DNA from: a virus
Taxonomy: Duplodnaviria > Caudoviricetes
Direction: 5' to 3' (one strand)
DNA: 37,300 nucleotides
Virus record (IMG/VR): IMGVR_UViG_3300027672_000032
Location: 1 to 37,300 of that record
Below the pieces are notes generated by a model. It ran no database searches and had not been told where the DNA came from. It saw nothing but the letters and a program-made list of their open reading frames with translations. The translations under genes and the position numbers were made by a program. Below, one piece after another: positions 10,119 to 25,817 of the stretch (its first letter is position 1; each line of letters starts with the position of its first letter).

Positions 10119-10269
10119 TCATTACCTCACAATCTATTACACGTATGTCATCAATGTCATAAAGAGCATACTGTATTTGCTCTGCTATAACCTCTGCATT
10201 GTTACCAAAAGCCTCTAAAAAATTGGCAGATTCATCTACTGAAATGGTTAAGTTTATTTGAAATAACAT
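10111..10269 (-). CDS. Small acidic hypothetical protein (52 aa), not in ORF track
   Basis: Hand translation MLFQINLTISVDESANFLEAFGNNAEVIAEQIQYALYDIDDIRVIDCEVMND. AGGAG RBS. Fills the gap and overlaps the mazG start. Confidence 0.75.
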   Translation of the reverse strand: MLFQINLTISVDESANFLEAFGNNAEVIAEQIQYALYDIDDIRVIDCEVMND

Positions 10270-10280
10270 AGCAGAAACTC

Positions 10281-10523
10281 CTAGTTATACACAGGGCCAC
10301 TGCCCGTGTCAAGAAGAAGTGGCTCAGCAGTATCCTTAAAGTATTTAACCCACTCATATGCATCGTTGAAGTCTTCGAACCAGAAGTTATCTTCTTCTAA
10401 CTTACCGTCAATCTCCACCTTGCATACCATGTAATAGGTAGCTCCCTCTGGGGCATCATAATCTTCAGAGAAATCTTCTACTACTGTTGGACCTTCTAGT
10501 ATTCCCCATATTTTAACTTCCAT
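10281..10523 (-). CDS. Hypothetical acidic protein
   Basis: 80-aa ORF overlapping the upstream gene in a packed operon. Confidence 0.7.
   Translation of the reverse strand: MEVKIWGILEGPTVVEDFSEDYDAPEGATYYMVCKVEIDGKLEEDNFWFEDFNDAYEWVKYFKDTAEPLLLDTGSGPVYN
10284..10312 (-). promoter_or_regulatory. Sigma70-type promoter for the nucleotide-metabolism cluster
   Basis: Minus strand TTGACA-17 nt-TATAAC(T), embedded in the 3' end of the upstream ORF. Confidence 0.7.
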
Positions 10524-10869
10524 CTTTATCTTTCCAATTCCTTAAGAGTTCCATGTAGTGATCCATACCAACCATCACCACCCAAGGCATACGATCAGAC
10601 CTAAAGAATACTACTGGTTCACCCTTAGCATGATTACTTGCTTGTTCCAAGTACCCATACACAGTTTTTAAAGAAGATTTCCTACGCTTAACTTCTATTG
10701 TAATAGGTAGCTTCTTCCTTGCAGCAGGTGACAGCTGGATGTCTTCACCAGTGTCACCCATTGTTGTAGACTTGATGTCATCAGGCTCAAACTCAGGGAA
10801 TGTCTCAAGTAATTTATCCCTGACTTCCTGTTGACCACCTCTACCCTTTGCCTTAGCAGCCCTAGTCAT
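10513..10869 (-). CDS. PD-(D/E)xK endonuclease, Holliday junction resolvase-like
   Basis: AKAKGR...GEDI...IEVKRR...PVV pattern of Hjc-like phage resolvases. Confidence 0.75.
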   Translation of the reverse strand: MTRAAKAKGRGGQQEVRDKLLETFPEFEPDDIKSTTMGDTGEDIQLSPAARKKLPITIEVKRRKSSLKTVYGYLEQASNHAKGEPVVFFRSDRMPWVVMVGMDHYMELLRNWKDKDGS

Positions 10870-11716
10870 TTAAAATTTCCTGTACTTGAGGCACTTTCTC
10901 AACGTGAGTCAGGTACTCTACACCATAAGAGTATTGGAACATACGGACACTAGGCCAGCACTCTTTCTTATAGTCGCAGAAGGTACAAGACTTATCTAGT
11001 TTCATGTTAGGACTAGACTTACTGGCAGGTACGGGGGGTACACGTTCAACTGGTATGCTACCTGCAACCATGCTCTTTGCTGCAAGCATCTCTTGTTCTT
11101 TAGTCTTAAGTTCCTCGGTAAAGTCATAGACATCTAAACAAATCTCACCACTTACCTTATCAATAACTAGGAAAGCCCCAGTTGTTTTGTTGGTAACGAG
11201 AGGGTCGTCCTTAGCTGCATACACATAAGAAGATAGTTGAGAGATGTAACCAAAGGGATCGTTAGCCCTAAGCTCACCATTCTTAAACTTCTTAAACGAG
11301 TAAGGGCTAGCTGACTTAACATCAACTGTCATACCATCAATGACTGCATCTCTGTGACCACGGATACCGTGGACGTGCATACGTTCTTGCATACCCTCCA
11401 CTGCGTGACCTGATGCCATGACCATGTGAAGGATTAGTTCCTCGATCATGTCGCCATAGAAAAATCTTAGTAGCATACTGGCACTAAGAGGCTCACTTGT
11501 TGTTGGTTTATTTATTCTGTACCAGAGTTTACGTTTGCATGGTGTGCCAATGGACGACAAAGAAAGGTAACCTCTTGGCTCCTGAGGCTTGCTGAATCTT
11601 GTATTAGCTGAGGTAGCAATAGCCTCGCCCATCATTGTGCCAAGCGTACTGGTCCAGCCACCTCTACCATAGATAACTTCTTCTAGGTCTGGAATTAGCG
11701 TATCAATATTTTTCAT
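10862..11716 (-). CDS. Cas4/RecB-like PD-(D/E)xK exonuclease
   Basis: S-x-S-x-IG-x-PC-x-RKLWY, GHRD...VDVKS, Q-x-x-x-Y and C-terminal CTFC...C (1+3 Cys arrangement). Confidence 0.85.
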   Translation of the reverse strand: MKNIDTLIPDLEEVIYGRGGWTSTLGTMMGEAIATSANTRFSKPQEPRGYLSLSSIGTPCKRKLWYRINKPTTSEPLSASMLLRFFYGDMIEELILHMVMASGHAVEGMQERMHVHGIRGHRDAVIDGMTVDVKSASPYSFKKFKNGELRANDPFGYISQLSSYVYAAKDDPLVTNKTTGAFLVIDKVSGEICLDVYDFTEELKTKEQEMLAAKSMVAGSIPVERVPPVPASKSSPNMKLDKSCTFCDYKKECWPSVRMFQYSYGVEYLTHVEKVPQVQEILND

Positions 11717-11728
11717 ATTCTCTCCTGT

Positions 11729-11753
11729 AAAAGTAGCCCCCCGAAGGGGGCCA
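11729..11753 (-). terminator. Rho-independent terminator after the SSB gene
   Basis: Minus strand GGCCCCC-TTCG-GGGGGCT followed by ACTTTT: GC stem with a cUUCGg tetraloop and a short U tract. Confidence 0.8.
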
Positions 11754-11757
11754 TAGT

Positions 11758-12303
11758 TTAGAACATTACTTCGTCTTCTATTGTTTGTACGCTAGCGGGT
11801 GACGAAACTACCGCTGGTTTACTTGATGCCGAGAAGACTTCAATCTTCTCAACAGGTGCACTGACATGATCAATGACCATCACTGAGTCAAGTCGTGTGC
11901 CAACCTTGCCGTACTTGGGGATGTCGTAAACAGTAGCAACGATCTCTACAGTAGAGCCATTACCAATCAGTCCATCTGATTCCAGATCCCAAGGTGTACC
12001 GTCTGCGTGAGTAACAACAGGTGCACCACCAGAGAACGGCTGTCCTGTATCAAACTTACGGTCAAACTTGACGACCGATCCCCTACCTTCTGCATCCTGT
12101 TTTGCGGACTTCTGTGCGCCTGATGATTGGAGTGCCTCTAGGTTAGGGCCGTCAAGAATTAAGTTAAGGGTGCAAGCACCATTGTATTTTTCGTAGCTAC
12201 CTTCCACTGATGGTGAAGGTTTGTAGCCAGCTAGGTCACGATTGCTTGCAAATACTTTTGCCCATTCTGCAATCCCAACGAGTTGAACTTTACGTGTAGC
12301 CAT
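11758..12303 (-). CDS. Probable single-stranded DNA-binding protein (T7 gp2.5-like)
   Basis: True start likely MATRK at 12303 (AGGAG RBS). IGNGS-x-V motif and acidic tail ending in F. Lies between polymerase and exonuclease. Confidence 0.75.
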   Translation of the reverse strand: MATRKVQLVGIAEWAKVFASNRDLAGYKPSPSVEGSYEKYNGACTLNLILDGPNLEALQSSGAQKSAKQDAEGRGSVVKFDRKFDTGQPFSGGAPVVTHADGTPWDLESDGLIGNGSTVEIVATVYDIPKYGKVGTRLDSVMVIDHVSAPVEKIEVFSASSKPAVVSSPASVQTIEDEVMF

Positions 12304-12313
12304 TTTATATCTC

Positions 12314-14158
12314 CTAATGAACGTCACTATATTTTTGACCGTACTGTACATCAATACCTAGGTCAACATTTAATTTAAGATCTTGGTTAAGTTTTTCTAT
12401 TGCCCACTTTAAAACCCTTGTGTGATCATCTTCTTCTCCTTTTTTAACAACGTTAATTGATTCATCGTGAAACTGGCCAATGATATTAGGCCGCTTTAGT
12501 CTGTAGTTTGCGACCCACCTATCGAAGCAGTAAGCACCAGTCGATTGGTTGAGGGTAGAGAATATATCTTTCTCGTACCGCAGACTATACCAGAATCCAC
12601 TGACAGGGTTCTTGACCCACATCTCACCATTAATCTTGCGTACCTTCTGATCTTCTGCAAAAGACTTTACAGACCAGTTACGTTCCCAGTAAGCATCAAG
12701 CAAAGCTTGGGCCTCTGGTACGGACATGCCAGTCTCACGAGATAACTTAGGTGAACCCACGCCATATGTAGCAGAGTAGTTCACAACCTTAAAGTTCTTA
12801 CGCATAGACTGAATGTCTGGCCTTTTACCTAAATTGTAATCATCTATCTCCTTTTGTGTAACTCTTCCTGCATGCTTTGCAAGGTCAAGGTGTGGATCAA
12901 ATCCCTCCTGTGACATCTCTAACACATAGGCAGGGTCGTAGGGTTGCATGTAGTGTCTCTTGGTAGTGTCTTCAAGTGATGTCATGTCAGCACCGCACAA
13001 GGTGTAACCCTCTGGTGCTATCAGACATCCTCTAATTTCTTTACCCCAAGGTTTATCTACACCTGGCAGATTTACAAGGGGCTTACTGTGCTTGAAGCGT
13101 AGGGTATTTGTAAGACCGTTTATCTCAGCCTTAACATGACCATTAACTTCAGAGCTTATGAAGCCCTTAAAGATTGCTAGCCTGTGATTAAGGATAGTGT
13201 AGCCCTCTAGCACAGACACGATAGGGTTCTGATCTACCAGAATTTCTACCGACTTAGTAAGTAGCCCTGCCTTACGGACTTGGGGTACCTTCTTTTCTTG
13301 ACTATCTTTTTTCTTGTAGTCGAATGTACAAGGTACCCAACCTAAAGAGTACAGCCAGTTCTTAACTTGGTCAGAGGAGTCTGGGTTAGGTTCATCCCAA
13401 CCCTTTGTTACTGTAACTTCACCATCATAGTGTCGTGGTAAGCCATGCTCATCAAGAAGTTTGAACCACTTCTCTCCGTGAGAGGAGACAGTACCATCCT
13501 GCTTGAAGCAGACCTTTGGCTTTCGTTTGATAGCTGTGACCCTACGCTTGGGCATGACTGCTGCAAGTTCAAGTGCACTCTCCTCCTTCTTCTTTGTGAT
13601 GTCATCAAAACATTTATTTGCTAAGTGAACATCAAGCTTCCAAGTAAACATCTCAGCTGCCGCAGCACAACCCATCTTAAACTCAAGGTACCTAAAGAAC
13701 TTATCAAGTAACTTCTTATCGTTCTCATACACATACAAGAACCTTTTAAGTAGGTTGGTCCACAGCAGCCAGTTGATCTTAACATCTTCTACACAACGGT
13801 GTGCATACTCTTCTGGAGATAAGTTTTTCCAGTCGTCTATCTCTGGCTTAGGTATATCAAAGTCTATGCCAAAGGTTTCTAACCCATGCTTGGATCTGCC
13901 GTAGTTAAGAACCCAAGACATAGGCAAGGTATCAAACAACCTAGCTGTAACCTTGATCCCTAAGATCTTCTCAAGCAAGGGTGCATCGTACCTAGTAATG
14001 TTATGACCAATCAAACCTTTCTGAGAAAGTATAAGGTCACGCATCTCTTGGTAGTCAAAGATAGTGTGGTAGTCTTTACCATCTGATGTGTAGGAAAGAC
14101 AGTGTATCTTTGTGGCATCTTCCAAAAGATCATCAGCTTCTACATCAAACAGTATCAT
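12314..14158 (-). CDS. polA: DNA polymerase family A with 3'-5' exonuclease
   Basis: Exo motifs FDVEAD, GHNITRYD and DV. Pol motif A GADMTSLE, motif B RKNFKVVNYSATYG, motif C FHDE. Confidence 0.95.
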   Translation of the reverse strand: MILFDVEADDLLEDATKIHCLSYTSDGKDYHTIFDYQEMRDLILSQKGLIGHNITRYDAPLLEKILGIKVTARLFDTLPMSWVLNYGRSKHGLETFGIDFDIPKPEIDDWKNLSPEEYAHRCVEDVKINWLLWTNLLKRFLYVYENDKKLLDKFFRYLEFKMGCAAAAEMFTWKLDVHLANKCFDDITKKKEESALELAAVMPKRRVTAIKRKPKVCFKQDGTVSSHGEKWFKLLDEHGLPRHYDGEVTVTKGWDEPNPDSSDQVKNWLYSLGWVPCTFDYKKKDSQEKKVPQVRKAGLLTKSVEILVDQNPIVSVLEGYTILNHRLAIFKGFISSEVNGHVKAEINGLTNTLRFKHSKPLVNLPGVDKPWGKEIRGCLIAPEGYTLCGADMTSLEDTTKRHYMQPYDPAYVLEMSQEGFDPHLDLAKHAGRVTQKEIDDYNLGKRPDIQSMRKNFKVVNYSATYGVGSPKLSRETGMSVPEAQALLDAYWERNWSVKSFAEDQKVRKINGEMWVKNPVSGFWYSLRYEKDIFSTLNQSTGAYCFDRWVANYRLKRPNIIGQFHDESINVVKKGEEDDHTRVLKWAIEKLNQDLKLNVDLGIDVQYGQKYSDVH

Positions 14159-15762
14159 GCAGCTATTGAACTCCCTTGATATGGTGCATCCTCAGTAAGG
14201 ATGGTTGTTTCTGGATCGTAGTATAGTGACCCTGCATTACCTAACTTAGCGAACGGTCTGTTCTTGTCAATGAAAAATGACGTAGTGTTCTGAAGTATCT
14301 CATCCTCAGACTCAACATCACGTTCAAGCTTGATACAGATGATAGCTTCTTCCTCAAGTGATGCAGCATACTTTGTTCTGCCATCATCATTGACCTGTGA
14401 GATGAATACCACACCAATGTTTAACTCCTTGGCTAACTGAGCCATACGTGAGCCTAGTGTGGTCAGGGTACTGGTGGCACCATCAACACCACTGTTGGAC
14501 AGGTAGGCTAGACGTTGTACGTGATCAATGAAGATGAACCCTGCACCATAAACTGAGGCAGACAACCTGACATAATCTAAAAGCTTAAGGGGATCATCAT
14601 GTCCTCTCATCTCAAAGATAATAGTACGTTCACCCTGTGTTGCTGCTTGAGCAGCTTTGATCACATCAGCCTCACTGATACCCGCTTCCCTTGCATCATC
14701 CTTGGTACGAACATTAATACCTAAGTGGTATGTAGCCATAGCACGGTAGGTTGTAGACTTCATCTCCTCCATGTGCAGTAGGGCTATGCGTGTGTCCTCG
14801 TCACGTAGTAGTCCTGTCTCAAAGAAACGAACGACTTCGGTCTTACCCATACCACGAGGAGCTTTGATAAAGGTAAGACCTCCCTTAACCATACCCCTGA
14901 TCTTTTCATCAAGACCAGCGTGACCAGTGGGTACATACTCGTAAGGGTTTTCTGTAAGGATTGCCTGTTCTACATCTGTATCAGAGCAGAAGAAGTTCTC
15001 CGGTGAATATCTCTGTGGTTTTCTTGCGGCCCACATCAGTGCATCAGAGTCACCAGCCTCAAGGAACTCATTAGCATCCTTGTACTTGGACATTGGTACA
15101 TAGTAAAACTTATCAGGGAAAGCTTGATATAGTTTATCAGCAGCCCTGCGACCAGCATCATCTAGCTCACCTGCGTACACTAACTCTTTGAATGACGACA
15201 GGTAATCATGATTGTGTTTGATGAACTTCTCACCGATGGATGCGCTGGGCAGGGACTTAACTGGGAAAGTCTTACCTAGTATCTGGTACAGGCTGGCGGC
15301 ATCGAACTCACCTTCTGTAATGTAGATACGGTTACTAGAACCTGCGTTAAACTCTGGGCCGAACAGCATGTTCATACCCAAGCCACGGTCCTTGACCCAC
15401 GACTTAGACTTATCATTAAACATGCGGTACTTGGTTGTGTGTGGGTACTTGTAGGCATACCTTACTGGATTGCCATCTGCACCCAACTGTAGTTGTATCC
15501 CATACATCTGGCATACATCAGGGTCTATTCCCCTGATACCATTGTATGTCATACCTTTTACTTCTATGTCCATTGGGTTTCTCCTCTCCCGTAGTGGATA
15601 ATCGGTAGCTGCCCACTCAAAGGTTGCTGGCATCCCCTTCTCTGGGTAAGACCTGCTGCATGAATGGCAGTGACCGAAGCCATCATCATTCCAATTGAAG
15701 GCATCACTTGATCCGCAGTCTTGATACGGACAAGCTAAGTGTGGGTTGTCATTCGTCGCCAT
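14155..15762 (-). CDS. T7 gp4-like primase-helicase
   Basis: Zn ribbon CPYQDC...CHSC. TOPRIM ITEGEFDA, DDAG, KDANE. Walker A PRGMGKT. FIDH and KNR motifs. Confidence 0.93.
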   Translation of the reverse strand: MATNDNPHLACPYQDCGSSDAFNWNDDGFGHCHSCSRSYPEKGMPATFEWAATDYPLRERRNPMDIEVKGMTYNGIRGIDPDVCQMYGIQLQLGADGNPVRYAYKYPHTTKYRMFNDKSKSWVKDRGLGMNMLFGPEFNAGSSNRIYITEGEFDAASLYQILGKTFPVKSLPSASIGEKFIKHNHDYLSSFKELVYAGELDDAGRRAADKLYQAFPDKFYYVPMSKYKDANEFLEAGDSDALMWAARKPQRYSPENFFCSDTDVEQAILTENPYEYVPTGHAGLDEKIRGMVKGGLTFIKAPRGMGKTEVVRFFETGLLRDEDTRIALLHMEEMKSTTYRAMATYHLGINVRTKDDAREAGISEADVIKAAQAATQGERTIIFEMRGHDDPLKLLDYVRLSASVYGAGFIFIDHVQRLAYLSNSGVDGATSTLTTLGSRMAQLAKELNIGVVFISQVNDDGRTKYAASLEEEAIICIKLERDVESEDEILQNTTSFFIDKNRPFAKLGNAGSLYYDPETTILTEDAPYQGSSIAA

Positions 15763-15931
15763 AATAAAAATCCATAAGCATTGCCCAGATGTACATGACA
15801 GAAACTACAGGCCATGTCAAGGCTATTTTAATAGGTGCATTCTCGTGCTCATCATCAAGAGGTTCTACTAAACCTAAGACCAGCATAACACCTAGGAGGT
15901 ACATCAGTACCCCGACCCAAAGAGCTATCAA
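15749..15931 (-). CDS. Small membrane protein
   Basis: Two hydrophobic segments. Overlaps both neighbours. Confidence 0.7.
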   Translation of the reverse strand: MIALWVGVLMYLLGVMLVLGLVEPLDDEHENAPIKIALTWPVVSVMYIWAMLMDFYYGDE

Positions 15932-16167
15932 AAATCACCCCCTAACCTTAACTTGTACATACCTTCTGTACTGTTCATGGACGCTACTATATCCAACAGC
16001 TGTTGTTGACTTAACATAATCATATCAGAACTCCCCGACTCCTCGTCATGCTGGGCTATAAAAACAGAACCATTGTCAGTTAGTGTAATCTCAACATCAC
16101 CGAACTCACCTCGTTCATCTAAGGTTATGATAGTTATTAGGTCGTGGTCAAACTCAACCGTATACAT
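15928..16167 (-). CDS. Hypothetical protein
   Basis: Likely start MYTVEF at 16167, just after the upstream stop. Confidence 0.7.
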   Translation of the reverse strand: MYTVEFDHDLITIITLDERGEFGDVEITLTDNGSVFIAQHDEESGSSDMIMLSQQQLLDIVASMNSTEGMYKLRLGGDF

Positions 16168-16169
16168 AA

Positions 16170-16421
16170 CTAAAGCTTTTCCTCTCCATTTAATTGGTTG
16201 ATACGCATCTGACAATACCGTTGAACTTTCTCTAAGTCTATGATCTCTGACTCAATGGTTGTCTTGTCGTCATACATTTTAAAACCTGCACGACTAGCAT
16301 ACTTAATGATGTTACCCCGCCAGAACTCAAAGCCATTGCGCATGATGTAGGTGATAGGTTCTATCTTCCACCTTGCGTAGTGGTCTGGTTCATTGACTAT
16401 CTCTTGATTAAACTTCAGCAT
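16170..16421 (-). CDS. DUF3310-family protein (T7 gp1.7 nucleotide-kinase-like)
   Basis: VN-x-P-x-HY...IE-x-I...GNIIKYA-x-RAG-x-K...DLEK...Y signature. Confidence 0.8.
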   Translation of the reverse strand: MLKFNQEIVNEPDHYARWKIEPITYIMRNGFEFWRGNIIKYASRAGFKMYDDKTTIESEIIDLEKVQRYCQMRINQLNGEEKL

Positions 16422-16660
16422 TATATACCCCTGTTAATTAGTGCCCTGACCTTAGCTCGACTACGTTCATCTGTAGTCAAAGGTCTTATGTCTGTTTGCT
16501 CTACTACATATGCGTTGTTGTACCTAAGAAGATGGGCTTCAGCCTCCCCTTTTGTTTCAAAGATCAAAGGTTTTGATTCGTAAGTAAAGGGGTTCTCTGC
16601 AGAGGCATACGCCCACTCATCTTCATCCACCTCAAACTTAACTAAGTATTGACTACTCAT
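16421..16660 (-). CDS. Hypothetical protein
   Basis: 79-aa ORF with TAATG coupling to the downstream gene. Confidence 0.7.
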   Translation of the reverse strand: MSSQYLVKFEVDEDEWAYASAENPFTYESKPLIFETKGEAEAHLLRYNNAYVVEQTDIRPLTTDERSRAKVRALINRGI

Positions 16661-16811
16661 GGCTTAGACCTCGCTCAACTAAGGTGACAAAACCTACGTT
16701 AAAGATAGCTTCAAATGTCTCAGGGTCACACTCAACCTGTAAGGTAGCACTGCCATCTTCATGTTCTTCTATCTCTGTTACCTTGATAGGTTTGCTAATA
16801 TCTTTAGTCAT
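16653..16811 (-). CDS. Small hypothetical protein (52 aa), not in ORF track
   Basis: MTKDISKPIKVTEIEEHEDGSATLQVECDPETFEAIFNVGFVTLVERGLSHE. AAGGAG RBS. Confidence 0.8.
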   Translation of the reverse strand: MTKDISKPIKVTEIEEHEDGSATLQVECDPETFEAIFNVGFVTLVERGLSHE

Positions 16812-16829
16812 CTGTATTCTCCTTTTTAG

Positions 16830-17117
16830 CTAGTAGTTTTCTAGTTCGTTATAGTCAGTCACTTCTACTAGTTGTCCTTTTAACTCTTCAACTTCAACCC
16901 ACCAAGTTATACGATCAGGGTAGCCACCAGTACGTTCAGCTACACTTGAAACAACATTCATCATGTCTCTTACTTGAGGAGCAGACATGTGGTACTGAGG
17001 TGAGTTTGGTACCCTGTAGTAGTCTTTGTTTTCAGGCCTCAGCATTTCTTGAGCGTTATCAAGGTTATCCATGTCCATGAGGTAGAAACTACGTATCTTA
17101 GCCTTACGATAATACAT
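16830..17117 (-). CDS. Hypothetical protein
   Basis: 95 aa with AAGGAG RBS. Confidence 0.75.
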   Translation of the reverse strand: MYYRKAKIRSFYLMDMDNLDNAQEMLRPENKDYYRVPNSPQYHMSAPQVRDMMNVVSSVAERTGGYPDRITWWVEVEELKGQLVEVTDYNELENY

Positions 17118-17266
17118 TACTTGTTCTCCTTTGTATGCTTACGGAATCGTTTATTGTACGCACGTTTGATCTTCTTTAGCTGACCACGTTTCCACATGTA
17201 AAACTTACGTGCTTTAGTGAGGCCGTCATACTCATCACCACCCTTCATGGGGATACGTTTGGTCAC
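17117..17266 (-). CDS. Small basic protein (49 aa), not in ORF track
   Basis: GTG start. MTKRIPMKGGDEYDGLTKARKFYMWKRGQLKKIKRAYNKRFRKHTKENK. AGGAG RBS. TAATG coupling to the next gene. Confidence 0.75.
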   Translation of the reverse strand: MTKRIPMKGGDEYDGLTKARKFYMWKRGQLKKIKRAYNKRFRKHTKENK

Positions 17267-17363
17267 TCATCATCTCCTACTACTGGGGTATTAGTAATGG
17301 CAAGTATTGCCTCTTAACTAATACTCTGGTGTCATTAGTATATCTTCTAGTTTAGTCAAAGGA

Positions 17364-18023
17364 TTAATCCATTAGTGCATCCCATGCTACAGGGAATAGC
17401 TCAATCATCTTACGATCAATCTGATTAGCCACCTGTCGTGTCTCTTCTTGTGTGTCAGGCTTACACCGTAGGTTACACATATCAGCAAGGGCATCAAGGC
17501 TACCTGACCAGTACCACTCAGTCATAGTGTTCTGAGGCAGTACCATACGTGCCTGTTCCTCACACACATTCTCTTCTAGGAGGTGATCATATAACATAGC
17601 TACAAGACGTTGTGTTGTCTTGATGTTAATGCCCTGTACTTCACCTGCACTACCCTGCTTCTTATCCTTAGCCTGTCCACGCCATACATCAGGGTGGTAG
17701 AACTCAGGTGCATCACTGACATACCTACGACTGATCTCATTCCAACGTAAGAACTTATGCTTCACTAGCTGTCGGGCTACGAAGATGGGAGCCTTGACGT
17801 GGAAGGATGCAAAGGCATGGCCGAAGGGTGACAGGTGTTTATGCTTGGCTAGGTACTTGATTAGCTTGGTGTCACGATCACTTAGAATCTTTAGTTGAGG
17901 ATGCATGGTACTGTGACGCCAATCAAGATAAGCCCACTCACTTTTCTTACCGAAGCTAACCCGTGCTGCGTTTACTACTGACAGGTCACTGCCCATGTGG
18001 TCTACATATGTTGCTTCAATCAT
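17364..18023 (-). CDS. thyX: Flavin-dependent thymidylate synthase
   Basis: AARVS, H-x-SPF-x-H, ARQLVKH...NEISRRY, EQARMVLP and TQEETR motifs. Confidence 0.95.
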   Translation of the reverse strand: MIEATYVDHMGSDLSVVNAARVSFGKKSEWAYLDWRHSTMHPQLKILSDRDTKLIKYLAKHKHLSPFGHAFASFHVKAPIFVARQLVKHKFLRWNEISRRYVSDAPEFYHPDVWRGQAKDKKQGSAGEVQGINIKTTQRLVAMLYDHLLEENVCEEQARMVLPQNTMTEWYWSGSLDALADMCNLRCKPDTQEETRQVANQIDRKMIELFPVAWDALMD

Positions 18024-18195
18024 CGACGGTCACTCCAATACAATCTATTGTTTCGTTGTCACTGTTCACCATAACGGCAGCACCCTTGAGGTTAGCCCTA
18101 CACAGTGTCTCATTATCGTAATTACCTAAGTCATAGTACCGAACCCCTTGGTCTGGTACAAAGACAAACCACATCAGTACCCATACAGTGTTCAT
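18016..18195 (-). CDS. Small protein with hydrophobic N-terminus and two Cys (59 aa), not in ORF track
   Basis: MNTVWVLMWFVFVPDQGVRYYDLGNYDNETLCRANLKGAAVMVNSDNETIDCIGVTVDD. AAGGAG RBS. Overlaps the thyX start. Confidence 0.78.
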   Translation of the reverse strand: MNTVWVLMWFVFVPDQGVRYYDLGNYDNETLCRANLKGAAVMVNSDNETIDCIGVTVDD

Positions 18196-18209
18196 ACTTC
18201 ATCTCCTTA

Positions 18210-19094
18210 TCATTGTCTCTGCCGCCTGTCCAATGCAGACTTAGCAGTTTTCAAACTGAATTTATTATAGGGGTTAAGACTTGCCACACTCTTATGACCT
18301 GATACAGATTGAATTGCAAGCTGGTCTACACCACTCTCAATCATCTGCACTATCGCAGTCTTACGTAGGTCACCCACCCTTAGGTCATCAGGAAGCCCTG
18401 CAGTGGCCTTAACCTCCGCCAGCAGGGCTGTCATGTTATGGACGGTTAGTGGCCTGTAAGACCTGTCTGCTGCCTTGTGGTAGGGTACCACCCACTGTTG
18501 GAAGTCCCAGTCTCCCTTCTGTTCAGATAGCATGTCAAATATATTATCTGGTATAGGTAACTCAACCACTGCACCACGTTTACTTTGGGTGATGGTTACA
18601 GACTTCTCATCAAGGTCCACATCATCCCACTTAAGGTTTCTTATATCAACAGGACGTTGACCCCACTCATAACACATAAGTACAATCATACCTATGTTCC
18701 TCCACTCAAACTTTGTGAAGGCAACGTCAAGAAACTTCATCACCTGATCGTGAGTCCAGATAACTGAACGAGGTGTGCTGGTTCTCTTGCGTACCCTAGC
18801 CATAGGGTTGAGGTTTAAGAGATCCAACGACACCAAGTAGTTCATGAGAACAGAGAACACCCTAGCATTGTGGTTTGCATTTGATGTAGATGTCTCCGAT
18901 TCCCATGTGTCGTACATCTCAGTACAGATTAGAACATTAATACTGTTGATATTAATCTTACTAATCCTCTTGCCCATCACAGACATACGACCAAAGGATG
19001 TGAGACAAGCTTCGTAACCTCTCTGAGAGGAGGCAGAGAGTGAAGCAAAGTGCCTCGTTCTAAAGTAGCTGTCTACTGCATCCTTGTATTTCAT
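18210..19094 (-). CDS. int: Tyrosine recombinase / integrase
   Basis: GQRPVDI (R), QSKRG (K), GDLRKTA (D in place of H in HxxR), SGHKS and NPY (Y). Likely start MKYKD at 19094. Confidence 0.88.
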   Translation of the reverse strand: MKYKDAVDSYFRTRHFASLSASSQRGYEACLTSFGRMSVMGKRISKININSINVLICTEMYDTWESETSTSNANHNARVFSVLMNYLVSLDLLNLNPMARVRKRTSTPRSVIWTHDQVMKFLDVAFTKFEWRNIGMIVLMCYEWGQRPVDIRNLKWDDVDLDEKSVTITQSKRGAVVELPIPDNIFDMLSEQKGDWDFQQWVVPYHKAADRSYRPLTVHNMTALLAEVKATAGLPDDLRVGDLRKTAIVQMIESGVDQLAIQSVSGHKSVASLNPYNKFSLKTAKSALDRRQRQ

Positions 19095-19138
19095 ATCTTT
19101 CCTAACCAATGTGTACAGTCGTCATGAGGATCATCCAT
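19091..19138 (-). CDS. 15-aa upstream micro-ORF coupled to the integrase
   Basis: AAGGAG-6 nt-ATG, MDDPHDDCTHWLGKI. Stop overlaps the integrase start (ATGA). Confidence 0.55.
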   Translation of the reverse strand: MDDPHDDCTHWLGKI

Positions 19139-19149
19139 GCTGATCTCCT

Positions 19150-19226
19150 TGGCCCACCCTGTAGGATTCGAACCTACGGCCTACTCATTAGAAGTGAGTT
19201 GCTCTATCCAGCTGAGCTAAGGGTGG
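19150..19226 (-). tRNA. tRNA-Arg(UCU)
   Basis: 77-nt cloverleaf: acceptor CCACCCT/AGGGTGG, D arm GCTC/GAGC, anticodon stem ACTCA/TGAGT with loop CT-TCT-AA, T arm GTAGG-TTCGAAT-CCTAC, encoded CCA. Confidence 0.96.
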
Positions 19227-19228
19227 GT

Positions 19229-19311
19229 ACTATAGTAGTACTTAAGTATATATATTTATAAGATATATTATAAAGTATATTCTTTAAGTAATACTTAAGT
19301 ATATTATATAG
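19229..19311. repeat. AT-rich cassette with TACTTAAGTA palindromes (copy 1)
   Basis: Almost purely A/T. Repeated (TAC)TTAAGTA. Shares 21 bp (inverted) and 18 bp (direct) with 25056-25163. Confidence 0.8.
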
Positions 19312-19333
19312 GTGAGCTTGACGATCTTGTCAA
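19305..19333 (-). promoter_or_regulatory. Sigma70-type promoter for tRNA/int/replication genes
   Basis: Minus strand TTGACA-17 nt-TATATA(AT). Confidence 0.7.
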
Positions 19334-19351
19334 GTGCGACATTCTGTCTCA

Positions 19352-20299
19352 TCAATAATAATACTTATTCCGGTTAACAGACTCATAGTAATAACGACTG
19401 TCATCTACACACGCTTCCTCTGCAAGTGAGTAGTAGTTGATACCCCAGTCATCCAGTAACTCTGCTATTTTTTGAGGGTGATCTTGTATTAGATCTTTCA
19501 TTGCCTGTATGTTAGATTCGTCAGGCTTACTGAAACCTCTGTAACTAAAGTCATCCCAGATATCTTCTCTTGAAGCTGGGTCACGTTCAAAGACTAGCTG
19601 AGTCCAGTCAGCACACACAAGTGCTGTAGCAAGTAGCTCTGCATACTTTAGATCTTGTGTTTCATTGACGCCATGCTGACCATAGTAACCTACACTAATG
19701 TTAGTACACTCTTGCACAACACCGATGTATTCGTTACTGTCTGTGTAAGAGCCACCATCATCAGCCACTAACTCAGGCATACCCAGTGCCTTGGAGAAAG
19801 ACTTAGCGAAAGCCTCTGATGCAGTACGTATACCCATCTGGTGTGTTACTACAGACGTATCACCAAGCCTATCAAAGGAGATCACAGCATCAACACTACT
19901 GATCCACGCAGGGTTATCCTCTACCAAAGCCCGACTGCCCTTACATCCAGACTCCTCTGCTGCATGGACTACATACACACCAGCTACACCAGCCTCAATC
20001 ATGTTGAGCATGAGCCATATACCAGTCGTACAATCAGCACCTAGGCAATTAGATTTTGTACTGTCTGCGATAGATACTACATCGTTTGCGACAATCAATT
20101 GCTGCATGCCCTCAGTACGATGTACTGTGTCGTGATGTGCAGTGAAGCACAGGTTAGGCTTGTCACCCACACTCAGTGTGTAGTTACCATGTCTGTCAGG
20201 TAAACCAAACATAGGTTCGAGAAACCTGTTACAGAAATCTCTTTGCGTCTCACTACCCTCAGGTCGCTTGTAACGCAGCATTTCAATTAAGCTATACAT
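19352..20299 (-). CDS. M28/M20-like zinc metallopeptidase
   Basis: TAHHDTVH, LGADC-x-x-G, AEESGCKGS, FDR, YTDS and NISVGYY-x-x-H motifs. Confidence 0.8.
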   Translation of the reverse strand: MYSLIEMLRYKRPEGSETQRDFCNRFLEPMFGLPDRHGNYTLSVGDKPNLCFTAHHDTVHRTEGMQQLIVANDVVSIADSTKSNCLGADCTTGIWLMLNMIEAGVAGVYVVHAAEESGCKGSRALVEDNPAWISSVDAVISFDRLGDTSVVTHQMGIRTASEAFAKSFSKALGMPELVADDGGSYTDSNEYIGVVQECTNISVGYYGQHGVNETQDLKYAELLATALVCADWTQLVFERDPASREDIWDDFSYRGFSKPDESNIQAMKDLIQDHPQKIAELLDDWGINYYSLAEEACVDDSRYYYESVNRNKYYY

Positions 20300-21933
20300 T
20301 ATTTTTCTTCCTCTTGTTTATACCAATAATTGTTTGGGTTCTGTATCCACTGATCGCCTGAGTCCTTCAACTCTTGGTAAGATACTAACTCATCATCTGT
20401 TGTAGTACATAGCCTACCGTTGGGGTACAAATCACCATCCCAATCAGAGAAGAAGTAGTCATCCATAGACTGCGGTGAGACCCAAGAATTTTCTTCTTCA
20501 CACCAACATACATCATCAATGCTCCAATTCTTATCGTCATTACAAAGCACAAAGCCGTCACCCTCTTCCAGTGCCCATGTAGAGACAGTCAACTCTAGTC
20601 TACGACCGTTCTGAGCCATGCAGTAGGCTATGTTAGCCTGAGAATCATGGAAGTGCTCTTCAGCATACTCACACCAGAAATGGTTCTCGTTAAAGCAGTA
20701 GTCACATGAGTTACCCTCCCAATGGTCAGACCACATAGAGTCCCCTTCGTTCATAGGATCACCGCAGTTGACACAGGGCTCACCAGTGTCACCCAAGATA
20801 CCTTGGTACTGACTGGCATCTACATCACCATCATATTCTTGGATAAGATACTTACCACACTCAGAGAGACCTAGGGTACGTGGTTCAATGTCTAAGTAAG
20901 GTCCAATGAATTGACCTCCTTGATGATCATAAGCAGGAATGGCGAGTAGCTTTGAGCCAGACCATTCGGGGTCTTCTATCTCTGCACCTATCTCTAACAG
21001 GTGTGCCTCTAGCATGTCAAGTGCTTGCTCTGATACACCATACATAGGACCAGCTTGAGGTATACCACTCTTGTGCTTTGTGTACACTACACACCTACCA
21101 GCTATGCGCCCATCAGTGTCAGCTACCTTGACTACAATAAAGTCTCCACTGGCATACGCCTCTACGGGGTGACACTCAAGGTTACTGAAGTCATATCTCA
21201 TGCAGCTGGATGCAGATGACTTGCGTTGACAGGTGGTATCTATGTTCTCCACCTCCGCTTGAGAACCAGCATAAGCTTCTTTGAAATCACTCCTGTCAGA
21301 ACCTGTAGACAACTTTAAGTCTCTGATACGAAACTTATTTAGATAGTCGTTGCCCAACAGGATGACCTGCTTGTGATCAAGCTCAGGGAACATCATAGAT
21401 ATAGCACGGCCAGGTTTCATAACTGTTTGCCTGTCTTGCAATCGCATATCAAGGTCTTTATAGATACTGATCTTACCTGCACTAATCTTAGATCGTATAG
21501 GTACGAAGCAATGAAGCCTACTACGCCAGTTGAATCTTTCTATGACATTAGTGCCGATACCAGACAGTCCGTGATTGGCCACAAAGTAGTTTACAAACCA
21601 ATTAAACAGAGGTATATCTACTTCAGCATTAAGGTATCCCTTGGACCTCTTGACCATGTACTTCTCGTATGGCCCCCACTGTTTGATCACTGGGTCAATC
21701 TCGTCCTCGTCAGGTACCACCTCACGCTTTACCATGAACCCATGAGCTGAGCTGATGTGTACCCAGTACCTGTGCCCGTCATCTAGTGTGACAAACCCAC
21801 CCACAAGTTCCTCTGCATCACCTATTACAGCACGATCCTCCTCGACTGCATATGTTTTATACTGTGTCACAACCTCAGAGTATAGTATTGGAAACCGTTC
21901 TGGTTGATTCACAGCCACTAAAGTATACTTCAT
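20299..21933 (-). CDS. Large early protein with SSCM/PYLD core and Cys/acidic C-terminal repeats
   Basis: Start MKYTL at 21933 (GGAGG RBS). KPGR, SSCMRY, GRCVV, PYLD, then CVNCG, CDYC, WCEY, CWCEE. TAATG-coupled to the peptidase. Confidence 0.8.
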   Translation of the reverse strand: MKYTLVAVNQPERFPILYSEVVTQYKTYAVEEDRAVIGDAEELVGGFVTLDDGHRYWVHISSAHGFMVKREVVPDEDEIDPVIKQWGPYEKYMVKRSKGYLNAEVDIPLFNWFVNYFVANHGLSGIGTNVIERFNWRSRLHCFVPIRSKISAGKISIYKDLDMRLQDRQTVMKPGRAISMMFPELDHKQVILLGNDYLNKFRIRDLKLSTGSDRSDFKEAYAGSQAEVENIDTTCQRKSSASSCMRYDFSNLECHPVEAYASGDFIVVKVADTDGRIAGRCVVYTKHKSGIPQAGPMYGVSEQALDMLEAHLLEIGAEIEDPEWSGSKLLAIPAYDHQGGQFIGPYLDIEPRTLGLSECGKYLIQEYDGDVDASQYQGILGDTGEPCVNCGDPMNEGDSMWSDHWEGNSCDYCFNENHFWCEYAEEHFHDSQANIAYCMAQNGRRLELTVSTWALEEGDGFVLCNDDKNWSIDDVCWCEEENSWVSPQSMDDYFFSDWDGDLYPNGRLCTTTDDELVSYQELKDSGDQWIQNPNNYWYKQEEEK

Positions 21934-21984
21934 TTTACATCCTCCAAAAATAATGCCCCACACAATTAAGCATGGGGCTATGAA

Positions 21985-22377
21985 TTAGGCATCCATGATA
22001 CCTACTTTATGTTCGGTAACAGTGACCACCTTGAATGTATCACCTACCTTTAGCTTACTGCGTAGCTTACCAAACTCAGTAGCAGACATCACCCTACCAT
22101 TCATGATGTACCCACCACGTTTGATTACAGTGTTCATCCTACCCTTAGGCAAAGTCTTAGGCGCAGCGGTACGTGCTGGATCAGGGTTACGTGCAGCAGA
22201 CTTAGGCAGGAACCCAAGACGCTTATAGTGATACGACAAAGTAAACGTGGACAGTTGTAGATCAAAGTGAGCCAGAGTTGCAGGTGCAGTATGGTTGCTG
22301 TAATACTGGCAAATCTCCATCCACTTTGCATCAGAAAAGTTATAGCGAATCGCACATTTTGCTGTAGTATTAGTCAT
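21985..22377 (-). CDS. Hypothetical early protein (basic)
   Basis: 130 aa with GAGGAG RBS. Confidence 0.75.
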   Translation of the reverse strand: MTNTTAKCAIRYNFSDAKWMEICQYYSNHTAPATLAHFDLQLSTFTLSYHYKRLGFLPKSAARNPDPARTAAPKTLPKGRMNTVIKRGGYIMNGRVMSATEFGKLRSKLKVGDTFKVVTVTEHKVGIMDA

Positions 22378-22453
22378 GATTTATCTCCTCAGATAATTAT
22401 AAGATACCTCAATGGTATCACACCACGCACCAGTTAAGGTGCGCAGACTGATA

Positions 22454-22576
22454 CTATCGTACTGTTACGTTCGTGATGCCCTTACTTCTAAGCGTCACAA
22501 GCATACCTTCTATACGCACCTCAGGCATTGTCATATAGAATATGTCATCAATATATACCCTTACAGTTTTACCCAT
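22454..22576 (-). CDS. Small early protein (40 aa), not in ORF track
   Basis: MGKTVRVYIDDIFYMTMPEVRIEGMLVTLRSKGITNVTVR. TGATG coupling to the upstream ORF. Confidence 0.6.
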   Translation of the reverse strand: MGKTVRVYIDDIFYMTMPEVRIEGMLVTLRSKGITNVTVR

Positions 22577-22833
22577 CACATCCACCCCGATTTTCTAGCT
22601 TCACTGACGCCTATCTGTATAGCTTGAAGCAAGGCATCACTGGTCACATCATAGTCAGGCACTAGGTATCCACCCATAAGCTCGGCCTCAGTGTGCCCAA
22701 AGTCACTGTCGTACTGCACAAGTTTCTGCACACAGTCAGTTAAGTCCCTGCCCCTGACAAACACAGGCTCAGCACCTGATTCCACCTCGTACCACCCAGA
22801 CAAAACATACCTACCTTTTTCTGTATTAGTCAT
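22576..22833 (-). CDS. Hypothetical early protein
   Basis: Likely start MTNTEK at 22833 after AAGGA. Confidence 0.7.
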   Translation of the reverse strand: MTNTEKGRYVLSGWYEVESGAEPVFVRGRDLTDCVQKLVQYDSDFGHTEAELMGGYLVPDYDVTSDALLQAIQIGVSEARKSGWM

Positions 22834-22907
22834 ATCAATTCCTTTCATGAGAGAACACCCCACGCTTTCACATAGGGTGCTGCATTACTTTATATTTAGG
22901 GTGGGAT

Positions 22908-23423
22908 TTATGCTGCAACTTTGAGACCTGAACGCTGTGCCTGTAGTGCTGCAATCATTGCCTCAAGTTTATCAGGGTTAGCTTTTACGCTACGTTCAGC
23001 CCAAGAAAATGCGTCAAATTCTTTTGCAGGTTTCTCGGGTTTAGGGAAAGAGTTATCAAACGCAGTTGACTTCACTGCACACTTAGACGCTGCAAGCATT
23101 GCGACAGACTGTAAACCTTCAAGGTTCAAGCCACCACCTTTACCCACGACAACACCAGCTTTACCATCCTTGAAAGTAAACTTCACATCCCACAATGCTA
23201 CAGCCAAGATACGCTTGAGAGGCGCAGAGAATTGTTTTAGGCTGTACCCATCCTCAATTTTATAAGTACCGTATTTTTTACCATTCGTGAAAGCAATCAG
23301 CGCATACAGCGGTAGATTATTTTTCTCATCAAATTGTTCCAGTGCATATTGCACAGCCTTAAAGAAACCATATTCCGCACCACGGGCGTTTGATACCCAG
23401 CTTTTTACATAATCAGTAGACAT
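22908..23423 (-). CDS. First gene of the minus arm, hypothetical early protein
   Basis: Likely start MSTDYV at 23423 after AGGAG. The ORF-track N-terminal extension lacks an RBS. Confidence 0.8.
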   Translation of the reverse strand: MSTDYVKSWVSNARGAEYGFFKAVQYALEQFDEKNNLPLYALIAFTNGKKYGTYKIEDGYSLKQFSAPLKRILAVALWDVKFTFKDGKAGVVVGKGGGLNLEGLQSVAMLAASKCAVKSTAFDNSFPKPEKPAKEFDAFSWAERSVKANPDKLEAMIAALQAQRSGLKVAA

Positions 23424-23429
23424 AGCATT

Positions 23430-23880
23430 TCTCCTATATTGCCATTCAACAAAACACACCACACCATGCGATATGCTTTGTATGCTGGCACATACTGACC
23501 CTAACTGGTACAGTCCACCATCGAGATACTCTGATAGCGGCCAGTTTACACAGGTCAAAGCAGTCCATGCGCTAGCGTATCACACAGTAGACCCTCCGAT
23601 ATATTCGGGGGCGTACAGGCTAGGTTCTAGCGGCTAATTTGTAGGGATTACTTGCGTTTTTCTGCGCCCATTTATCATGAGCCTTTTATTTACTGCCCAA
23701 AACACTAGGGCAACATAACTATTTATAACCCCGAATATCGTCATGAAATACAGATTGTCAGTCTGGGATTATCGGCGTGAGCCTACCATTCGGGGATATT
23801 TACAATGTCAAATAACGTGGGTCACTGCCCTAGGCTGAAAAGGATTTCTAAGGTAACCGAAGCGCCGTTGAAATCCGATA
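23430..23880 (-). ncRNA. Candidate structured RNA / long 5' leader
   Basis: Multiple nested helices found by eye, for example 23705-23712/23826-23833, 23729-23736/23788-23795, 23842-23848/23870-23876, 23496-23500/23553-23557 and 23503-23508/23541-23546. Confidence 0.5.
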
Positions 23881-23988
23881 ACCAATATCTGACAGGAGTG
23901 GACAATCAACGCAACCCCATTGAAAACATTGGATAATTTCCGAATCAGTAAATAAATATCTAATTAAATCAGTGGGTTGAGTGATTCG

Positions 23989-24520
23989 TTGCGAATGGTT
24001 CGCAAGTAAATTATCTAATAAATAATTGAGATTATCTGCTAAGTCATTGATTTTAAACGAAAACAAATTGTTGTTGCGAATGATTATCAAGTAGAATGAG
24101 AACAAAAGGAGAACACATTTTTTATATTATATAGTATAAGGGGGAAATCTAGGAAAACTGTTTAATATCAATAGGTTACAAGGACTACAGAAAAAAGTGT
24201 TAGTTATCAATAAGTTAGCCGCAAAGGTTGTCTAGGATACTTGAGGTGCTGAAATTGTCTAACGGTACTGTATGAGGCTAAAATCGGGGTCTACGTCGTG
24301 TTCTGCTTTTGTTCACGGCAGTAAAAGAACAAAGAGAGAACGGAATAGACTGGGCAATAGGTAAGTAGTGGTGACCTATTACTGGAATAGAACAAAGAGA
24401 GAACATGAGATATGTCAGGACTATTGACGTAGAACAAAAGAGGAACAGGGGGTAGGTCATGTATACTGACTCATTGGGGTAGTGCTTGGGTTCTACTTGC
24501 TAGTTGCGAGTGAGTCGCAG
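23989..24520. promoter_or_regulatory. Three Fur-family-like palindromes
   Basis: TTGCGAATGGTTCGCAA (23989), TTGCGAATGATTATCAA (24074) and TTGCGAGTGAGTCGCAG (24504). Confidence 0.55.
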
Positions 24521-24548
24521 TTGCAATACTCCGGAACAAATCGAGAAC
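24100..24548. promoter_or_regulatory. Array of six alphaproteobacterial LexA (SOS) boxes
   Basis: GAAC-N7-GAAC at 24100, 24327, 24390, 24432 and 24534. GTTC-N7-GTTC at 24300. Confidence 0.85.
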
Positions 24549-25034
24549 ACTTGCCCTCATATAATACTCTATTGTATAAATTATGTAGCAATATCAATGG
24601 GTTAGCTGTAGAAACCTGCTGTTTACTGGGGTAGGTCAGGAGTATTGACCTATTATACCCCCCGTATGGGCCACCCCACCCCTGTACGTATACGTATATA
24701 CCCAATGACAGCGGGGAGTATTTTACAATCTGTTAACTACTTTAGTAATACAGCCCAATATCAGTACTACTGCAGTAGAAACCCCATTTTATAGCAGTAA
24801 TCCACTATTTATTAGTGTTATAATGTTACATTTACTATAAGCCCCGTAGAATCACGCTAGTATCCCCCAGGTATGTCTGCTTACCAGACCCCTTTAGCTG
24901 CAATGAGAGAGCTTCTCCGTGGCTCTCAGGGTATACTGGGGTAGAATCGGGGGTGTTACTAGGGATACGACAGATATGTTGTCCTCTTGGTCAATACAAA
25001 GTAATAATTATTACTATTTATTCTTAGCTGCTAC

Positions 25035-25064
25035 TTGACAGCCGGGCAGAAGGTACTATATAAT
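25035..25064 (+). promoter_or_regulatory. Sigma70-type promoter at the start of the late arm
   Basis: TTGACA-18 nt-TATAAT. Confidence 0.7.
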
Positions 25065-25163
25065 ATACTTAAGTATATACTAGAGTAAGGTTACTTAAGT
25101 ATTACCTAATTAATTATACTTAATATATATATATAAATATATTACTTAAGTAATACTTAAGTA
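25056..25163. repeat. AT-rich cassette with TACTTAAGTA palindromes (copy 2)
   Basis: Four TACTTAAGTA copies plus TA runs. Confidence 0.8.
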
Positions 25164-25215
25164 CCCCCAAGCCTAAGTCTAGATGTACAAATTTTTTTGT
25201 CGTAGTCTTTTAGAC

Positions 25216-25244
25216 TTGACGTCAGGAATTTTAAAGGTATAACT
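25216..25244 (+). promoter_or_regulatory. Sigma70-type promoter, probably producing a leaderless mRNA
   Basis: TTGACG-16 nt-TATAACT. The ATG at 25249 follows within 5 nt and has no RBS. Confidence 0.5.
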
Positions 25245-25248
25245 ACTA

Positions 25249-25500
25249 ATGTCAAAACCAAAACTATTTGCCTCTGAATCTGTGCTAGAAGAATTTTATC
25301 TTGCTCTAGCAGGTAGAGATGCAGCTAGACTCCGTAGAGTTCACATACCAAGATCAGATGTATTCTACGTAAGAGAAAAAATCTATCAGGATACAGGAAC
25401 TAAGTATACTCTCGATCATGTAGAGAGAGCTATGTACTTAGAGGGTATGCTAGATCGTAAAGATGTACTAGATCCTGGACGAGAAAGAGAATACGGATGA
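25249..25500 (+). CDS. Hypothetical protein
   Basis: 83 aa with ATGA overlap with the next gene. Confidence 0.75.
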   Translation: MSKPKLFASESVLEEFYLALAGRDAARLRRVHIPRSDVFYVREKIYQDTGTKYTLDHVERAMYLEGMLDRKDVLDPGREREYG

Positions 25501-25817
25501 CTTCCTTCGAAGAAGCAGACAAGAATGGGAATGGTTCCATCGAAAAGTCTGAGTGGAATAAAATCTTATTAGATGATAAGCGGAGACGTTTAGAAGATGA
25601 GGACGCCCACAGAGACCAAACTAGAAAGATGGCTTGGTTTGCTTTGTGGGGAATGCTCCTTTATCCTTTTGGTGTGGTACTCACAAGTGCTCTCGGTTTG
25701 GACAGTGCTTCAACGATTATCGGCAGCATGGCCAGCATTTACTTTGTGTCTGTTGCTGGTGTGGTATCTGTTTTTATGGGTGTAACTAACTTAGCTAAGA
25801 AAGTTCCAAGCAAATGA
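25497..25817 (+). CDS. EF-hand-containing membrane protein (holin/antiholin-like)
   Basis: DKNGNGSIEKSE canonical EF-hand loop, then two hydrophobic helices. Directly upstream of holin and endolysin. Confidence 0.7.
   Translation: MTSFEEADKNGNGSIEKSEWNKILLDDKRRRLEDEDAHRDQTRKMAWFALWGMLLYPFGVVLTSALGLDSASTIIGSMASIYFVSVAGVVSVFMGVTNLAKKVPSK

Follow-up and report, generated by a model that had tools for sequence, protein, structure and literature searches.

The stretch of DNA analyzed here, referred to below as the window, is a whole virus contig of 37.3 kb with an estimated genome completeness of 67%. Early and replication genes were found on the minus strand (6246–23423) and lysis and virion genes on the plus strand from 25249 onwards, and the two arms are separated by a divergent region (23424–25248) that is gene-free according to the ORF map and annotation, apart from short ORFs. 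The first early gene (22908–23423, minus strand) encodes a protein of 171 aa and the first gene of the lysis/virion arm (25249–25500, plus strand) one of 83 aa, both without a family match; the latter gene served as anchor for finding relatives. The lysis genes are headed by a gene for a small membrane protein with an EF-hand-like loop (25497–25817).

The virus was found to be roseophage-like, with virion genes of the HMO-2011 type and a polymerase like that of CRP-6. The nearest match of the terminase was Roseobacter phage CRP-13 (81.6%) and that of the polymerase CRP-6 (53.9%), and the tyrosine integrase (18210–19109, minus strand) was 35–39% identical to those of eight HMO-2011-type records. 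In this combination of an HMO-2011-type terminase, a CRP-6-like polymerase and an integrase related to the HMO-2011 type, the window resembles the group II metagenome-assembled phages as they are described in PMC8528129. Since the nearest isolates infect Rhodobacteraceae, the host is likely a marine member of this family, in line with the alphaproteobacterial host on which the LexA reading of the first-pass annotation depended. A search of GTDB genomes for prophages of this virus group gave no confirmed match by integrase alignment and six matches to the 83-aa gene, all in metagenome bins of unrelated taxa, which were taken as misbinned phage contigs and not as host prophages; the host assignment thus rests on the related isolates. 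As had been remarked earlier, no CI-like repressor was seen in the window: LexA- and CI-like families were not found, several early proteins being without a family and the genome 67% complete. A Pfam search of the unannotated early proteins gave no family at the cut-off, and an Atlas search for phage repressor candidates gave matches below the lead level or none.

LexA-type boxes in the divergent region

The six GAAC-N7-GAAC boxes reported for this region in the first-pass annotation were all found in place, namely box 1 (24100–24114), box 3 (24327–24341), box 4 (24390–24404), box 5 (24432–24446) and box 6 (24534–24548) on the plus strand and the inverted box 2 (24300–24314) on the minus strand. 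A scan against shuffled controls showed that these are all the GAAC-N7-GAAC words in 37.3 kb (shuffle mean 0.93; six reached in 0 of 100 shuffles). For the 1.8-kb intergenic zone alone, shuffling gave a mean of 0.026 and a maximum of 1 (500 shuffles), and other spacings (N3–N12) gave 10 matches in the window and none inside the zone. The stretch was covered by assemblies from eight runs of eight studies, and no variant inside a box was present among the substitutions listed for these runs (in one listing the best 40 of 43), so the boxes are not an assembly artefact; the approximately nine variable positions in 24060–24600 are too few for the population data to show selection.

By sequence, the word was found to be that of the alphaproteobacterial LexA operator. 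Eighty relatives of Rhodobacterales LexA were taken from metagenomes, 79 of them with sufficient upstream DNA, and the exact GAAC-N7-GAAC word was present at most 150 nt from the start in 67 of these 79 alphaproteobacterial-type lexA upstream regions, in which the N7 spacing occurred 82 times vs. five times for all other spacings. At the positions not fixed by the search, the six boxes agree with the host matrix (p = 9e-5, compared to random 19-mers from the same zone). The boxes as a whole score 17.3–19.1 for a maximum of 19.1, and extended RGAACA half-sites are common to the window boxes and 66 distinct host lexA-upstream sites. The window spacers are more A-rich than the lexA-promoter spacers; A-rich spacers were also found on the S. 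meliloti chromosome, at six of its 10 sites; the one site examined for its neighbors is flanked by genes of the VOC and Lrp families and by no repair gene. The alphaproteobacterial SOS box has been published as GTTC-N7-GTTC (PMC8565304), and GTTC/GAAC sites are given for D. shibae (PMC6473078). The window boxes appear to share with this SOS box the direct repeat, the 7-nt spacer and the RGAACA half-sites, but differ from host SOS boxes, of which there are one or two per repair gene, in that six copies lie within 450 bp of phage DNA.

The relatives comprised 80 viral loci anchored on the 83-aa gene. In these loci the 7-nt spacing was kept, as the operator reading had predicted: the 1.6-kb stretches that precede the first late gene, 96.7 kb altogether, contained 45 N7 boxes vs. 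0–3 for each other spacing (10 for nine other spacings together), and there was no N7 excess in the 508 kb outside this upstream zone. The six closest loci covering the zone contained four to six boxes each. Four positions were common to the window and six relatives: those of box 1 (kept in all six relatives covering it), box 2 (exact in four of six, with one or two mismatches in the other two), box 5 (kept in all six) and box 6 (exact in six of the seven relatives compared, with one mismatch in the seventh). At these positions 189 of 192 half-site bases (98%) were identical in the six relatives, compared to 125 of 168 spacer bases and 285 of 420 flanking bases (68%), the six relatives being close to each other and therefore not independent. 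In addition, one or two boxes are located near 24150 in relatives and none there in the window. Together, the conserved shared positions and the boxes gained or absent between relatives point to both selection on the boxes and turnover of them.

The turnover is most apparent for boxes 3–5. Boxes 3 and 4 are identical, the segment 24388–24428 (box 4 forms the first half of a 42-bp repeat unit of box and MarR-linked palindrome) is repeated at 24430–24470 with 71% identity, and in six close relatives, which do not contain boxes 3 and 4, gaps were found at the places of the box 3/4 repeats; boxes 3–5 thus look like a lineage-specific local duplication. The earlier argument that variable spacers of constant length and one inverted copy speak for selection and not for simple duplication was therefore only partly sustained. 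The spacers are 7 nt throughout, the half-sites are conserved and the N7 spacing is strict, but the spacers do not vary freely, since all six boxes read GAACAAA-NNNN-GAAC, and duplication was seen beside selection.

Outside the closest cluster, box-bearing relatives mostly contained only one to three boxes. Among nine isolate genomes in which the region is complete enough, CRP-9 alone has boxes there (CRP-3, CRP-212, CRP-235 and CRP-738 were excluded from this count, as their records stop less than 300 nt after the last gene). CRP-9 contains two boxes in the corresponding region and none in the rest of its 56 kb; it has no integrase. CRP-9 (locus L004) and locus L033 each have a pair of boxes spaced by 29 bp and lying about equally far from the G+C-rich element described below, and an integrase is present only in the L033 genome.

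Neighboring operator-like words and the G+C-rich element

Besides the boxes, Fur/Mur-like, IHF-consensus and MarR-linked words were found to alternate with them, which had been overlooked in the first-pass annotation. Four matches to WATCAANNNNTTR, which we take to be the IHF consensus, are located in the zone (shuffle mean 0.16), at 24040–24052 on the minus strand and at 24166–24178, 24205–24217 and 24592–24604 on the plus strand, the last at a position kept in relatives. Three palindromes of the Fur/Mur-like type TGCGA-N5-T(C/A)(G/T)CA are present, at 23990–24004 (TGCGA-N5-TCGCA), 24075–24089 and 24505–24519; the third, kept in position in seven of seven relatives, lies 14 nt before box 6. 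Their shuffle mean was 0.008, an enrichment that is partly circular as the pattern was drawn from the phage sequences after the fact. The pattern gave only two matches in bacterial DNA, both in one of two rhizobial chromosomes, and the population variants at these sites were changes among TCGCA and TCTCA as well as TATCA to TCTCA. For Caulobacter Fur sites a 'conserved TGCGA motif' is reported (PMC2724300), and the TGCGA-core palindrome fits the 19-bp 9-1-9 layout of the Fur-alpha/Mur box (PMC1698941, PMC2724300). Fur of Rhodobacteraceae is reported to act as the manganese sensor Mur, which leaves the metal uncertain.

Four palindromes of the type AGGTCA-RYA-N-TRY-TGACCT were found between and after the boxes (shuffle mean for GGTCA-N7-TGACC-type copies 0.034 at up to three mismatches). 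Those at 24359–24377, 24412–24430 and 24633–24651 are within two mismatches of the consensus, the last directly preceding the G+C-rich element, and the one at 24454–24472, which follows box 5, shows more than four mismatches and is closer to the consensus in relatives. A variant in the second copy (T24413G, in five of eight runs) gives the GGTCA form. Among the relatives, eight of the 13 loci in the box-rich group contained the palindrome, compared to none of the 15 in the other group.

A scan of viral contigs with the outer 14 bases of the palindrome gave 119 loci, or 91 distinct ones after removal of eight of the window's family and of duplicates (viral palindrome loci are L276–L394 and L398–L478, host loci L397, L479–L484 and L491–L493). 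All six spacer positions that were not searched for fit in 25 of the 91, with 0.4 expected at even base composition. An alphaproteobacterial LexA box was also present in 12 of the 91 loci vs. one to five for other spacings, and in a second scan with a refined word a box lay within 500 nt in 10 of 58 distinct loci vs. 0–5, the two sets overlapping, several box-rich loci being inter-related and some loci possibly being kin of the window's family. A bare count of TAGGTCA-N7-TGACCTA in viral contigs (approximately 130) was discarded because it had no chance control. Pfam matches were obtained for 10 of 109 ORFs beside the palindrome in the viral loci, none of them a regulator. AGGTCA-RYA-N-TRY-TGACCT was observed in unrelated phages of 31–68% G+C, sometimes in rows of three to six. 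One separate phage group (L304, L341, L409, L422, L435 and L438) carries seven to eight alphaproteobacterial LexA boxes, several at an 11-bp step, with the palindrome 38–40 nt from one box.

In three host replicons (S. meliloti, Shinella and Methylobacterium) 10 palindrome sites were found at up to two mismatches, compared to none for the reversed control. In each of the three, the palindrome immediately precedes an orthologous marR gene, with a divergent ilvE gene in Shinella and Methylobacterium, and it also lies before a PLP aminotransferase gene in S. meliloti and Shinella; further sites precede genes for a YitT transporter and a glutamate dehydrogenase, and two of the 10 lie in unrelated or coding sequence (neighbors of nine of the 10 sites were looked at). 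The prediction that the palindrome also precedes the same marR gene in further hosts held in three of three (Tistrella, Azospirillum and Rhizobium; two to three mismatches vs. five to six for the reversed control). The palindrome thus precedes one MarR-family gene in six of six alphaproteobacterial genera, none of which belongs to the Rhodobacteraceae. The simplest reading is that it would be the autoregulated operator of an ilvE-linked MarR regulator of amino-acid metabolism, presumably the one named PetP. A scan of viral sequences using the MarR protein gave no match. An Iron-Rhodo/IscR box was provisionally set aside, the half-sites of that box facing the opposite way. The operators of the WYL regulators DriD and DdaA were also rejected, these being CGAC-N7-GTCG or CGWCA-N5-TGWCG (PMC12392091) and the word in the window GGTCA-N7-TGACC. 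Literature on this word was not found in a search that left subscription journals and regulon databases mostly outside, where it may be on record.

The G+C-rich element (24660–24745) was shown to be family-wide, with 69 occurrences among the 70 loci whose sequence extends 500 nt upstream, and contains a TGACAG ... TGTTAAC dyad. It is a candidate genome-end or packaging signal. Assemblies break at this element because relatives share it, and for the same reason a rise in contig depth seen in one deep run (from 388 to 476–508 across 24608–24732) was set aside as an end signal. A common contig start marking genome ends was not found in the assembled contigs, on which the end mapping rested, the starts being scattered. 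The element was also considered as a structured non-coding RNA and rejected, as none of six pairs covaried and an Rfam search gave one chance match far below the threshold. According to PMC6775973, cobaviruses have their terminal repeats between the two arms, where there are no ORFs, and these repeats begin with a G+C-rich patch, of which the element in the window is reminiscent. In other lineages of the HMO-2011 type the corresponding region is occupied by repeated GTGATCAC and GTTTAA-N2-TTAAAC words, and in CRP-207 by many GATTCG words (a GANTC site); the isolate genome ends with such alternative repeated words are L001, L085, L086, L088, L089, L090 and L091.

Promoters, integrase and distribution of the boxes

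The only perfect sigma-70-type site (TTGACA-N18-TATAAT, 25035–25064, plus strand) points into the lysis/virion arm and is 487 nt from the nearest LexA box. A −10-like element, TATACTATATAAT, at 24126–24138 on the minus strand is a candidate early promoter; it is conserved in six of six relatives and has the same TACTATATAAT context as the late-arm site. The consensus promoter scan did not list this element, which has no good −35 and is nearly symmetric, so that its direction is inferred, and it lies approximately 700 nt from the start of the first early gene. Box 1 is located 11 nt downstream of it on the minus strand. In three relatives (L005, L006 and L011) an extra box, missing in the window, ends approximately 20 nt upstream of the −10-like element, where it covers the corresponding −35 position. 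Among the relatives further off, only some loci showed −10-like words near their boxes, and boxes 2–6 of the window overlap no promoter detected by the scan. The first-pass annotation had concluded that the boxes are not on a promoter and hence favored a decoy or structural use; that conclusion is insecure, since a conserved −10-like element that seems to point to the early genes lies so close to box 1 and the −35 position is boxed in relatives. The placement of relatives' boxes around the −10-like element and −35 position resembles the recA promoter of Caulobacter, at which LexA straddles the −35 (PMC9186387). AT-rich TACTTAAGTA repeats were observed after the late promoter (25061–25166) and after the tRNA/integrase promoter (19230–19335); they may bind a phage protein or belong to an origin.

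A tRNA-Arg(TCT) gene (19150–19226), kept in 27 of 74 integrase loci, lies directly upstream of the integrase gene. It could be an attachment site; no host junction was seen at it. The integrase was present in 30 of 46 records searched, including all six near-complete ones. Boxes were found in 21 of the 31 integrase-anchored loci spanning the control region, and among loci with this region covered they accompanied the closest integrase type in 10 of 13 and other integrase types in none of 15 (L053 and L068 were left out, their upstream cover being too short). It thus seems that the boxes move together with the early arm. A tree of the 83-aa late gene, from a short alignment and with 10 of 35 branches well supported, calls for five changes in box status, at least three of them forced.

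A link between the boxes and integration, as suggested by the presence of an integrase in a genome with LexA boxes, proved weak. CRP-9 is boxed and contains no integrase, the 15 loci with other integrase types are unboxed, and the integrase/tRNA promoter of the window contains no LexA box. The boxes thus go with the early arm and possibly also with the host, rather than with integration as such, which argues against LexA replacing CI across the group. They do not accompany the temperate machinery as they would in a LexA-run lysogeny switch of the GIL01 type.

Possible roles and comparison with known systems

We favor, with a probability of about one half, a reading in which host repressors act as a brake on early transcription and are released when host DNA is damaged or the nutrient state changes. 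Host LexA on the predicted boxes would damp transcription from the −10-like element at 24126–24138, taken as the early promoter, and Fur/Mur and the MarR protein would act with it. Cleavage of LexA is triggered by RecA, and after damage such cleavage would lift the brake and may thereby speed up or trigger lytic growth. The Fur/Mur sites would add a metal input and the MarR sites an amino-acid input, the sign of the effect being left unspecified. Because the boxes and the integrase are independent of each other, we would see the brake as an additional layer rather than as the lysogeny switch of the family. It counts against this reading that six boxes exceed the needs of repression and that two look recently duplicated.

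Alternatively, abundant host proteins (LexA, IHF, Fur/Mur and MarR) might bind the region, taken as the likely genome terminus, as a structural coat with little effect on transcription, where they would shield the DNA that enters first or is packaged last from exonucleases, pace its entry or shape packaging. The position of the sites beside the family-wide G+C-rich element, the four IHF-consensus sites, the G+C-rich start of the cobavirus terminal repeats, which occupy a comparable place (PMC6775973), and the different repeated words of other lineages in the same stretch are all consistent with such a coat. We nevertheless consider it unlikely: no termini were located among the scattered starts of the assembled contigs, and a coat would explain neither the choice of damage, metal and amino-acid sensors nor the boxes flanking the −10-like element in relatives.

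We regard as distinctly unlikely the decoy proposed in the first-pass annotation, in which the replicated boxes would draw off the host's LexA, with Fur/Mur and MarR perhaps likewise titrated, so that host recombination, repair, metal-uptake and aminotransferase genes would be derepressed. The one to three boxes of most box-bearing relatives outside the closest cluster are few for a sponge, and a sponge would not need conserved positions beside a −10-like element and other operators. However, box number has increased by duplication in the window's lineage, all six boxes are near the matrix maximum, the scan found no promoter under boxes 2–6, rows of seven to eight boxes lie beside the same palindrome in unrelated phages, and CRP-9 is boxed although it has no integrase.

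DNA-binding proteins made by the phage itself might also use these words, their likeness to host operators being due to convergence. Several early proteins are without a family, approximately one third of the genome is missing, and a 130-aa early protein has weak look-alikes in helix-turn-helix families (0.76–0.77, below the lead level of the tool; its single-sequence fold, at pLDDT 41.7, gave no usable model). This explanation is highly improbable in our view, since it would require three separate words each to match a host word, the palindrome occurs both in unrelated phages of 31–68% G+C and before host marR genes, and the gene for the 130-aa protein has only two related loci, whereas the boxes are widespread. 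Neutral repeats from slippage in an A-rich region, for which the duplication of boxes 3–5 and the AAA at the start of every spacer might speak, are hardly credible given the strict N7 spacing across relatives, the inverted copy and half-sites that are far more conserved than spacers and flanks. The first three readings (brake, coat and decoy) are not mutually exclusive, and the last two fit worse.

More widely, many unrelated alphaproteobacterial phages may share a multi-input switch composed of host repressors only (LexA, Fur/Mur and the ilvE-linked MarR), a suggestion that we make tentatively and at less than even odds; if true, an abundant marine phage group would time lysis to host physiology without a repressor of its own. 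As a predicted set of operators for host damage, metal and amino-acid sensors, the region bears on the choice between waiting and lysing in HMO-2011-type phages, which together with related roseophages are reported to be dominant marine viruses (PMC9038755). The cultured CRP-9, with its two LexA boxes at the same place, makes a direct test possible. Besides, the MarR-linked word points to an alphaproteobacterial regulon for which our searches gave no description; unrelated phages appear to make use of it.

Phages that use host LexA, Spo0A or CtrA have already been published (PMC9437464), and with phage use of LexA well known the original finding is less surprising. No paper on LexA boxes in the roseophage group of the window was found, and the main texts of PMC8528129 and PMC9038755 contain neither 'LexA' nor 'repressor'. 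In GIL01, SOS boxes in promoter P1 act together with the phage protein gp7 (PMC4551915), and CTXphi, 186 and SPC32H are cited as LexA-controlled phages in PMC9437464. As far as these phages are described there, the window resembles them in that words for the host's LexA are placed in a control region; a CI-like repressor was not found in the window, at the 67% completeness of its genome. It differs from them in its LexA word and host group and in the independence of its boxes from the integrase. No antirepressor or co-repressor was identified in the window, and, unlike gp7 of GIL01, the partner suggested by the neighboring palindrome appears to be the host's MarR.

The sites for host master regulators in the 'lytic deferment' by CtrA and in Spo0A control of phi29 (PMC9437464) are a further parallel, as host transcription-factor words there too lie in control regions, even of lytic phages, and are read as sensing of host state. 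The window differs from these cases in that it combines words for three candidate sensors with IHF-consensus sites, and the portion of PMC9437464 consulted describes no MarR input. To judge by the literature searched, what is new is the putative operator panel in this phage group together with the MarR-linked word.
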